Assembly: GCA_947084945.1 (NCBI GenBank)
Contig: CAMTUP010000011.1
Span: 22,945 to 86,944, forward strand
Direction: 5' to 3'
DNA from: an uncultured Ignavibacteria bacterium
GTDB taxonomy: Bacteria > Bacteroidota > Ignavibacteria > Tepidaquicellales > OLB5
DNA: 64,000 nt
Shown here: one piece after another, positions 25,528 through 28,463 of the stretch
How the letters are laid out: every line of letters begins with the position of its first letter
Numbering within the stretch: position 1 is the first letter of the stretch
Notes under the pieces: model-generated
The model's database searches: none
Told to the model about the DNA's origin: nothing
The model's input: the letters and a program-made list of their open reading frames with translations, nothing else
Position numbers and translations under genes: made by a program

Positions 25528-26475
25528 TTAACTTGCAGCCCTCATTATTAAAAATGCATTCAGTAAAATATATACAGTAACTACAGAGTAGAAGCTCGTC
25601 ATATCCAGTTTTTTTGCTTTGGCAATATACACAGGTTTTTGAGTCTCATTCCACTTAAATGATATTACTGCCACGACCAGAATAACAAATATTGCTATAA
25701 AAGTAATATTGTGAATATTATCAAACAGTGTGTTTGATACTGTTGATGGTACAACTGATTCAATTATATATTTATTACCTACTGCTGCAAATAAACCACC
25801 AACGCACAGACCCAACCTATCGCTTGGTTTAACAAAGAAGGCAAGCAGCACAATCGAAAAAGCGACATACACACCTGTTAGCATTTTAAACAGAGTATTC
25901 CATGAATTTTGGCGCGTTATATATATATCAGCAGTTACAGAAGGATAAGTGCTCGAGCCTTTTATTACAGGGTCGCCGAATGTTGTGTTATAGGTTTGAT
26001 TGTTAACGTAAAATTCAAGCGAATCAATTTTCCAGTTACTAAGCACAAGGTTTGAATCAATACTGGAGTTTTCAGCATCGGTGATAAATGCAAGTTTTTT
26101 AGTATCATATATTGTGTGATCAATATGCAGCGTAAGTTTTTGTTTATCAAAAGGAAATGCTGATACATCCCATTCCTTAAAAACCTCTGTGTTAAATTTC
26201 ATCATGTCCCAGTTAATGCTGTTTTTTTTCATCTTTGAGTAATTGGTAAAGGATGATGATTTAGAATTAGTAATTTCCAAAGCGTCATTAAACTGCAGGC
26301 TATCATTGGAATAGTTAAACCATATCCAGAAATCAGCCGAAAAGCTTTGATCACTTATTTTAAAATCTGTAAGTGAATTAAAATAGATGCCCACCCTGCA
26401 AGTATCTTCAGCAGCAAAGATTTTTGCATTGCAGTAAAAAAACAAAAACAGAAGAATTATAATAGATCTTTTCAT
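25528..26475 (-). CDS. Prokaryotic pentameric ligand-gated ion channel (GLIC/ELIC-like)
   Basis: Signal peptide, DFWIWF, Pro-loop WDVSAFPFDKQKL, pre-M1 Arg, four TM helices, M2 DRLGLCVGGLFAAV, M2-M3 Pro. Confidence 0.82.
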   Translation of the reverse strand: MKRSIIILLFLFFYCNAKIFAAEDTCRVGIYFNSLTDFKISDQSFSADFWIWFNYSNDSLQFNDALEITNSKSSSFTNYSKMKKNSINWDMMKFNTEVFKEWDVSAFPFDKQKLTLHIDHTIYDTKKLAFITDAENSSIDSNLVLSNWKIDSLEFYVNNQTYNTTFGDPVIKGSSTYPSVTADIYITRQNSWNTLFKMLTGVYVAFSIVLLAFFVKPSDRLGLCVGGLFAAVGNKYIIESVVPSTVSNTLFDNIHNITFIAIFVILVVAVISFKWNETQKPVYIAKAKKLDMTSFYSVVTVYILLNAFLIMRAAS

Positions 26476-26634
26476 TAAGTATAATATTATTAACGATGTA
26501 ATTCAGCAAAGTTAACAAACTGAACAATTAATAGTTAGTTAAAAATTTATTAATACACTATTTTTAGAGTAATTTTTTTAATTAAACGATAAGTTGAATC
26601 AAACAATACACGGCTGCCCGGGATATGATTCTAT

Positions 26635-26718
26635 TTACGGTCGTTTAAAGCCAAGATCACCGCAGGCAAGAATGGCAGCCAACATAAGAAGTACAAGAAG
26701 ATATTTTTTCTTTTGCAT
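26635..26718 (-). CDS. Unannotated 27-aa ORF with lipoprotein signal (MQKKKYLLVLLMLAAILA-CGDLGFKRP)
   Basis: Translated by hand: ATG at 26718, TAA at 26637-35; basic n-region, hydrophobic h-region, ILAC lipobox-like site; AT-rich leader with A at -3. Confidence 0.5.
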   Translation of the reverse strand: MQKKKYLLVLLMLAAILACGDLGFKRP

Positions 26719-26864
26719 AATAATAAATATTAAAACACTTTAAATTTTTTTGATAATATCTTTTGTATTGCAAGCGGTATGAAAGGGGTGATAAATATCA
26801 TACTTCCCTCACATTTGGACTGCCCGAACTGCAAGCAGACGTTTCGTTAAGAATAGAAAAATTG

Positions 26865-28463
26865 CTATAATTCTTCAGGCGGCTGGTAAAGGTAAATCAT
26901 CCATTTATCCGTTTCCATTGCTAAGGTCATATCATTTCTTACATACTGTCTTGGCGCGGTAAGCTCTGTGAAAATTTTATTCATCATTGTATTGGGATTT
27001 TTGCGGTACATAATTATTCCCTTTGGGTTTTTCTTGATGAAAGATTTTATTTCAGTTGTTAAACCTTCTTTATCAACGGGCACGTTATAACTGCTGATGA
27101 GAATCTTTTCGGGCGGCGCAAGTTTTGTACGGTATGGTACGTAAAAAATACTTGAAGCATTATCATCGGCATCAAATATCAATGCCGGGTATTTTTGTAT
27201 GTTATTATCGATAAAATCAATAAGTTTTGTGGTCTCTTCTGGTTCATCGGCAGTTACAATGAACTCAATAACTTTTGGGAAGAGCTTGTTATATTTTTCG
27301 GGAACAAGTTGCTTAACATATGAAAAAGGAATGCACGAGAGAATAACAACTGACGCCAGCGCAGTTTTCAAAACTCCTGAGCGAAGTTTTGAAAGATCGG
27401 TATTCAATCCAGCCGCCGCTAATACAGGTGCTATGAAAAACATAAGGTACAAGTAGTGAGTTGTATGATAAATTGTAGATTTAGCTCCCGCTGCACCGTT
27501 TATCAAAGCAGGAGCCAGAATAGGTATCAGCAACGCAAAAAGAATTACTTTAGGATGCCCCTTATAAAAATATATTAAGCCTTTAATAAAATAGTAAAAG
27601 AGTATTATTGTTAAGCCAAGAGCAAGAAAATAGTAGGGAAGGAAGAAACCTTTCATTCTAAGTCCAAGGTTTAAACCCTGTATGTTTATTGATTCAGTAT
27701 ATTGATCAGCAGAACTAATTGTTTTAAAAGGTTCACCATAAACGGCATAACTTACCACAACCCAAATAAACTGGAAAAAGAGTGATAGCCCGATGTATAA
27801 ACAGCATCCTTTTTTACGGGTCATAAAAGCAAGCACACAGAAAGGAACAATGATAAAAATTGCCTCGGGTCTGGAAGCGAGTGCTATGAAAGAAAAAATC
27901 CCCGCAATAATAAAGTATGAAACACTTTTTTCAGAAGCCAGTGCTTTGATGAAATAATATATCATAATGCACGCAGCCGCAAGGTATGTTTGCTGTGCAT
28001 ATGGTTCAAAATTAAGGCGGAATATTACTGGATTAAGCGTTACAATAATAAATGCAAGTAATGCTGTTTTGTAATCAGTTAAAGCAAGCGTAAGTTTAAA
28101 AACATATATACAGGCAATTGTCATAACGGCTATCATCGTCAATGCGGAAGTTAGGTAAAGCTCACCTGTAATGTTTAATATTGATCCCATGAAGTAAAAC
28201 CAAAGCGGATGCCCAGATTCAGGTAGAATAAATATGGGATTTTGCGACCACCATAAAGCATTCCAAACACGGGTTGCTGAATCTCCCATATCCATCATGT
28301 TAAACGGAATGAGATATATTTTTACTGCAATTGAAATTATCACGACGGCTGCAAATACAGAGATTTGCGCAATATTAAGTTTTTCAGGCTTTAGTGTAAA
28401 ATTGCCCATACTTATCCCGAGTACTCGGGATGGAAATAAAAAAGGTTGCTTTGTATTTGTCAT
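26865..28463 (-). CDS. GT-C fold (ArnT/PMT-like, GT39/83) membrane glycosyltransferase
   Basis: First-loop acidic MGDSATR, GHPLW, SRPE, about 11 TM helices plus a soluble C-terminal domain. Confidence 0.65.
   Translation of the reverse strand: MTNTKQPFLFPSRVLGISMGNFTLKPEKLNIAQISVFAAVVIISIAVKIYLIPFNMMDMGDSATRVWNALWWSQNPIFILPESGHPLWFYFMGSILNITGELYLTSALTMIAVMTIACIYVFKLTLALTDYKTALLAFIIVTLNPVIFRLNFEPYAQQTYLAAACIMIYYFIKALASEKSVSYFIIAGIFSFIALASRPEAIFIIVPFCVLAFMTRKKGCCLYIGLSLFFQFIWVVVSYAVYGEPFKTISSADQYTESINIQGLNLGLRMKGFFLPYYFLALGLTIILFYYFIKGLIYFYKGHPKVILFALLIPILAPALINGAAGAKSTIYHTTHYLYLMFFIAPVLAAAGLNTDLSKLRSGVLKTALASVVILSCIPFSYVKQLVPEKYNKLFPKVIEFIVTADEPEETTKLIDFIDNNIQKYPALIFDADDNASSIFYVPYRTKLAPPEKILISSYNVPVDKEGLTTEIKSFIKKNPKGIIMYRKNPNTMMNKIFTELTAPRQYVRNDMTLAMETDKWMIYLYQPPEEL

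Follow-up and report, generated by a model that had tools for sequence, protein, structure and literature searches.

Small open reading frames that encode little more than a lipoprotein signal peptide can be compared with two kinds of described locus. Small lipoproteins of the entericidin type are made as short precursors that carry a type II signal peptide with its lipobox Cys, and have a mature part of ∼30 aa; Atu8019, from the entericidin family, is a 53-aa precursor that gives rise to a 32-aa mature form (PMC7296081). Ordinary bacterial pseudogenes, in which an internal deletion is combined with a nonsense mutation, display a full-length homolog in relatives, several lesions and relaxed constraint. 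The 27-codon ORF described here is located in a 64,000-nt window (the whole stretch of DNA that was analysed) from the genome of an uncultured Ignavibacteria bacterium. It resembles the entericidin type in its short precursor and in its predicted type II signal peptide and lipobox Cys, but its mature part would comprise only 9 aa, it belongs to no family of short homologs and its frame is not kept within the species. By contrast, the ORF and the DNA that follows it share all three features of the pseudogenes. The locus also resembles the genes of GH25 lipoproteins found in three congeners (G016, G003 and G006), with which it has in common a signal peptide, a lipobox, a CGDLGF(N/K)RP..ESYP linker, the last 22 codons plus stop, and a location after a GT2 and a GT-C gene. 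It differs from these genes, in which the catalytic domain is present, by a nonsense codon at position 28 and an out-of-frame deletion. We consider it very probable that the 27-codon ORF represents the beginning of a GH25 muramidase lipoprotein gene that is now dead, and is thus part of an ordinary pseudogene. Gene decay of this kind is already known, and no new mechanism or family is implied.

The ORF extends over 26635..26718 of the minus strand, from an ATG at 26718-26716 to a TAA at 26637-26635, and its product is MQKKKYLLVLLMLAAILACGDLGFKRP*. It is flanked by a GT-C gene encoding 532 aa (26865..28463, minus strand; PMT_2 match, PF13231 E 1.3e-8) and a pLGIC-like gene encoding 315 aa (25528..26475, minus strand), the latter displaying a weak match to Neur_chan_LBD, the neurotransmitter-gated channel ligand-binding domain. 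The ATG is 146 nt from the stop codon of the GT-C gene, both genes being on the minus strand, while 159 nt separate the end of the ORF from the start of the pLGIC-like gene, upstream of which it lies. An earlier note on this DNA, which left the strand unstated, had reported the 27-codon frame and placed it co-directional with and 146 nt downstream of the GT-C gene and upstream of the pLGIC; the ORF is present exactly as described, and the coordinates agree with that placement. The G+C content of the ORF is 39%, compared with 30% over the whole GT-C/pLGIC gap.

The ORF peptide, MQKKKYLLVLLMLAAILAC, passes a rule modelled on the PROSITE PS51257 expression, which demands a K or R in the first 7 residues, an uncharged hydrophobic stretch, the pattern [LIVMFWSTAG]2-[LIVMFYSTAGCQ]-[AGS]-C and a Cys at 15-35. 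Thus K/R occurs within the first seven residues, the h-region is uncharged and the motif I-L-A-C ends at Cys19, features that define a putative type II signal peptide. The note had described the n/h/c-region as well formed, and the orthologs described below have the lipobox in the same column of the alignment. The lipobox pattern alone, however, proves no gene, as 45 of the 13,458 ATG-ORFs of 20-40 aa in the same genome pass the rule in its loose form; the ORF is beyond chance because it is homologous to real lipoprotein genes.

When the 389-nt gap was used as a DNA query against 40 related genomes, three informative matches were returned. The match to G003 (83% over 53 nt, E 1.4e-8) covers the 3′ half of the ORF and extends beyond its stop, that to G016 (75% over 69 nt, E 2.4e-6) covers most of the ORF, and that to G012 is confined to the DNA immediately preceding the pLGIC-like gene. 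The matched DNA in G003 and G016 is the 5′ end of a far longer ORF, which reads ...ILSCGDLGFNRPSKESYPVSGIDVSHHQGDIDW..., and a protein search of 20 congeners (G001-G020) identified a third intact copy in G006. Counted from their likely starts, the intact proteins comprise 250 aa (G016), 236 aa (G003) and 247 aa (G006). The longest-ORF calls are over-extended at the 5′ end in G016 (271 aa; L009 1104..1919) and G003 (243 aa; L010 5318..6049), and the G016 call overlaps the end of the GT-C gene; the likely start is the Met that precedes the signal peptide. The two of the three proteins that were scanned match the PF01183 Glyco_hydro_25 profile with E values of ∼9e-43 (G016) and ∼1.5e-40 (G003). 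All three have N-termini of the form ...LSC(G/S)DLG(F/S)NRPSK(D/E)xYPxxGIDVSHHQG, in which the lipobox, V/I/F-L-S-C, occupies the same alignment column as Cys19 of the ORF. GIDVSHHQG and D-I-E, which we take to be the GH25 catalytic motifs, are invariant across the three proteins. A wider genome collection contains >580 further GH25 homologs from other phyla, which span ∼190-245 of the 250 aa in the 80 listed; among the matches listed, the nearest relatives outside the genus exhibit 44-47% identity and derive from Dysgonomonas, Chryseolinea, Acetivibrio and others. Neither the 40 relatives nor the wider collection contains a homolog of the size of the ORF. The matches in the relatives are exclusively the N-termini of full-length GH25 genes, and no short ORF is conserved across species among these genomes.

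DNA and protein alignments show that the relic consists of two remnants. The 5′ remnant, ∼100 nt in length (26718..26619, minus strand), contains the start codon, the signal peptide, the lipobox Cys19 and the linker as far as ...ESYP plus 1 nt. The premature stop, TAA at codon 28 (26635..26637, minus strand), replaces what is a Ser codon in the three intact orthologs (TCA in G016 and G003); the window reads CCG TAA ATA GAA TCA TAT CCC G at this point and the orthologs CC(C/T) TCA AAA GA(T/G) (G/T)C(T/A) TAC CCT G. The earlier note had recognized no downstream continuation after the TAA. This view is not tenable, as past the stop the homology goes on in frame as IESYP (RP*IESYP vs RPSKESYP) and then in the +1 frame as GSRVLFDSTY...stop. 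The switch of frame occurs at a deletion junction (26618..26619, minus strand), where the 5′ homology ends and ∼563 nt are gone in comparison with G016. Beyond the junction lies the 3′ remnant (26550..26618, minus strand), 69 nt that encode GSRVLFDSTYRLIKKITLKIVY* and terminate at the original stop, 26550-26552. This remnant aligns with the C-terminus of the G016 protein, GSKALFDSIYVITNKESPHILN*. The two share 14 identical nucleotides in a row, ATTGTTTGATTCAA, and each runs for 22 codons from Gly-Ser before reaching its stop. The missing segment corresponds to L009 1288..1850 in the G016 reference, and, because the 563-nt deletion is 2 mod 3 and so out of frame, the 3′ remnant is shifted to the +1 frame with respect to the 5′ part. 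The PF01183 domain, residues 65-239 of the G016 ORF as called (GIDVSHHQG to DMNVFNG), is located entirely inside the missing segment. The relic is not itself a GH25 member, the domain being absent, while the parts that are retained at the orthologous locus display GH25 homology.

Smith-Waterman scores for these alignments were compared with 500 shuffles. The 5′ piece scored 61 against G003 and 53 against G016, the shuffle maximum being 29 in both cases (0/500). The 3′ piece, at a co-linear position, scored 36 against G016 (shuffle maximum 29, 0/500); against G003 its score of 21 (shuffle maximum 30, 113/500) is co-linear but alone not significant, and the significance of the 3′ remnant is thus against G016 only. 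The A/T-rich spacer of 146 nt between the GT-C gene and the ORF (26719..26864, minus strand) was at shuffle level, with scores of 19 against G016 and 17 against G003 (shuffle maxima 28 and 31; 231/500 and 429/500, respectively).

The intact 236-250-aa homologs in relatives, together with the TAA and the deletion observed here, are consistent with a model in which the ancestor possessed, just downstream of GT2 and GT-C, a gene for a ∼240-aa lipoprotein-anchored GH25 muramidase (a Chalaropsis-type lysozyme). A deletion of ∼563 nt, out of frame, would have taken the region from the catalytic GIDVSHHQG motif through the ...NVFN motif, fusing the first 33 codons (signal peptide, lipobox Cys and CGDLGF(N/K)RPS(K/I)ESYP linker) to the last 22 codons and stop. 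In addition, a TCA to TAA change at codon 28 would have left the signal peptide and nine linker residues. The order of these lesions in time, as well as the lack of a present function for the stub, is something we infer; no positive finding speaks against the model. The stub would resemble a well-formed lipoprotein signal because it was formerly a real one, and its ORF would look tidy because the premature stop happens to follow closely on the signal peptide. Consistent with this proposal, alignment with the orthologs shows that the predicted 9-mer, CGDLGFKRP, corresponds to the first residues of a conserved linker, CGDLGFNRPSK, by which the lysozyme domain behind it is tethered to the membrane in these proteins. 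Microhomology-mediated deletion via a shared GGCA was considered and rejected, as an extra 5-nt loss would be needed; the loss of 563 nt in one event, which brought CCxG next to GGCAG, is the simpler explanation. The locus should be annotated as a GH25-lipoprotein pseudogene, 26550..26718, minus strand. Of the two possibilities raised in the earlier note, the stub of a truncated lipoprotein gene proves correct, intact GH25 orthologs being present in the slot and both remnants aligning with them. These data caution that a very short ORF encoding a signal peptide of textbook quality may be what is left of a larger gene, a question that comparison with congeners settles quickly.

The genomic context of the relic is shared with the intact genes, as GH25 is downstream of the GT2 and GT-C pair in G016, G003 and G006. 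The GH25 start in G016 is ∼20 nt past the stop of the GT-C ortholog (C-terminal residues WIVYIYQPPEELK, compared with WMIYLYQPPEEL in the window), with no gene between, a spacing that suggests ancestral co-transcription of GT-C and GH25; in G003 and G006 the GT2 and GT-C genes are followed by two or three small genes, and these by GH25. The GT-C proteins of the three congeners exhibit 62%, 63% and 79% identity to that of the window, and for the stub tblastn gives 55%, 62% and 43% identity to the N-termini of the orthologs. The two sets of values are comparable, as they should be if the relic has been inherited in place. The distribution of the GH25 lipoprotein is patchy, with intact copies in three of the 20 congeners and the relic in the genome of the window. 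In G012 the gene is cleanly absent at the corresponding place, where a 172-aa gene is followed by ∼50 nt and then the pLGIC. In G012 a different gene precedes the conserved region upstream of the pLGIC-like gene, which in the window (26476..26561, minus strand) is found downstream of the original stop of the relic as context outside it, is 79% identical to G012 over 86 nt (E 3.8e-13) and is partly conserved with G016. The interval between the GT-C and pLGIC-like genes is a variable slot in the genus, in which genes come and go. The comparison shows that GH25 is ancestral to the slot of this lineage; given its presence in three of 20 congeners, the demonstrated ancestry reaches no further.

PF01183 at E<=1 found no match anywhere in the 98.9%-complete genome to which the window belongs, while control genomes were matched. 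In tblastn searches of the same genome with the three intact GH25 proteins the stub was the top match (E 4e-5, 1e-3 and 0.018), with nothing notable besides, and a protein search likewise recovered the stub only, through a match with ‘1 TAA' inside. The species has thereby lost its only GH25 lysozyme.

Conspecific contigs from five further, independent metagenome assemblies (Logan; ERR3478710, ERR4904396, ERR14788458, ERR14788459 and ERR14788467, from at least three accession series) encode the exact pLGIC-like protein, with the same gene order and a gap of 389 or 390 nt. The TAA and the deletion junction are common to all five contigs, and thus to six assemblies counting this genome. Variation was observed in a homopolymer at codons 4-5 (26704..26709, minus strand). 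The window and two of the five contigs contain A6, and in this haplotype the ATG, n-region, h-region and lipobox are intact; the other three contigs (ERR14788458, ERR14788459 and ERR14788467) contain A7, which shifts the frame to MQKKKISSCTSYVGCHSCLR*. The A7 contigs also share linked differences at three spacer positions, and these linked SNPs argue that A7, although observed at a homopolymer site, in assembled contigs only and in three runs with adjacent accession numbers, is a real second haplotype of the species. The A6/A7 difference is the only indel in the 6948 nt compared, which are 99.38% identical, and it is located in the sole stretch that is not a live gene. That the only indel falls inside the stub is an argument against selection on the 27-codon frame; the relaxed constraint typical of a pseudogene is thus evident from the frameshift, within the limits of a homopolymer seen in assembled contigs.

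A different view is that the relic has been co-opted as an expressed tiny lipopeptide, which Lgt and LspA would convert to diacylglyceryl-CGDLGFKRP and which would act as an envelope anchor, a signal or a glycosyltransferase acceptor. We regard this as very unlikely. The start codon and the signal elements are, as stated above, intact in the A6 haplotype and, with no terminator-like site between GT-C and the stub (there are 0 in the gap), the stub may still be transcribed by read-through, and even translated; the 20-nt spacing in G016 is in keeping with such an arrangement in the ancestor. Against this proposal, the 9-mer is merely ancestral linker, no short homolog accompanies it in any of the genomes searched, and the frameshift at codons 4-5 destroys the signal peptide in three of the five contigs while 6.9 kb of flanking genes are without an indel. 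Furthermore, a mature part of 9 aa is far below that of known small lipoproteins such as Atu8019 (PMC7296081), and the loose rule picks out 45 lipobox-like short ORFs in the genome. The earlier note had offered a minimal lipopeptide (a signal, a membrane anchor or an acceptor of glycans from the adjacent GT-C enzymes) as its other possibility, and had named full-length lipoprotein homologs as the finding that would speak against it; the homologs found are all full-length GH25 proteins of 236-250 aa, and the minimal lipopeptide is not supported. Even less likely is the specific proposal that in the A6 haplotype the relic is translated off read-through GT-C transcripts and processed to a 9-residue diacylglyceryl lipopeptide, CGDLGFKRP, that serves the envelope. 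Were the 9-mer translated and co-opted in this way, it would be the smallest known bacterial lipoprotein, and one born from a pseudogene.

It is highly improbable that this MAG lost the main part of an intact GH25 gene through a mis-join. Although the genome is assembled as 42 contigs, which leaves scope for errors of assembly or binning, no GH25 fragment is present elsewhere in it, and the TAA and junction are not an artefact of the MAG because they are shared by five independent assemblies, in which the gap is also 389 or 390 nt. The weakest proposal, to which we attach a vanishingly small probability, is that a chance ORF in A/T-rich intergenic DNA mimics a lipoprotein signal: the frequency with which short ATG-ORFs pass the loose lipobox rule and an intergenic G+C content of 30% are compatible with this, but it is refuted by the significant DNA and protein homology to lipoprotein N-termini and by the syntenic position, and the G+C content of the ORF itself, at 39%, also exceeds that of the gap.

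The decayed GH25 gene is the only coding remnant recognized between the GT-C and pLGIC-like genes. Searches of the 146-nt spacer by tblastn with the proteins that occupy the slot in congeners (the 133/137-aa proteins, the 202/220/244-aa membrane proteins and the 172-aa protein) gave no match, and none was convincing genome-wide. A five-residue string, YKRYY, spotted by eye in one spacer frame and in the C-terminus of the 137-aa G006 protein, was not recovered by tblastn and is ascribed to chance. The gap contains three promoter-like sites, compared with 3.5 expected from shuffles. The only Rfam match, to ctRNA_p42d (26696..26716, plus strand), lies opposite the start of the stub with 20.5 bits, against a gathering score of 50, and E 0.085; it is most likely a chance match in A-rich sequence.

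Other features of the region were also observed. A motif, TAACTTTG (26507..26514, minus strand), is found 31 nt ahead of the pLGIC-like start codon and does not vary between the window, G012 and G016. It matches the Bacteroidota-type −7 promoter element, TAnnTTTG, which suggests that the pLGIC-like gene may have its own promoter, independent of the relic. The content of the slot differs between genomes. In G016 (L009) it houses GH25 and, in convergent orientation, an ABC ATPase, a permease, a binding protein, a TonB-dependent receptor and a 206-aa gene; in G012 (L011) a membrane protein of 244 aa and a CxxCH-motif protein of 172 aa; in G003 (L010) and G006 (L016) a 133/137-aa gene, a 202/220-aa membrane protein and then GH25, with the 172-aa protein also present in G006; and in the window (within 25528..28463) the relic alone. 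Finally, 19 of the 42 substitutions between the window and a conspecific contig (L017, 6948 nt) are clustered in 138 nt at the 3′ end of the GT-C gene (26932..27069), where they lead to six amino-acid changes within residues 470-511 of the protein. This segment looks like a recombination tract that ends beside the variable slot.
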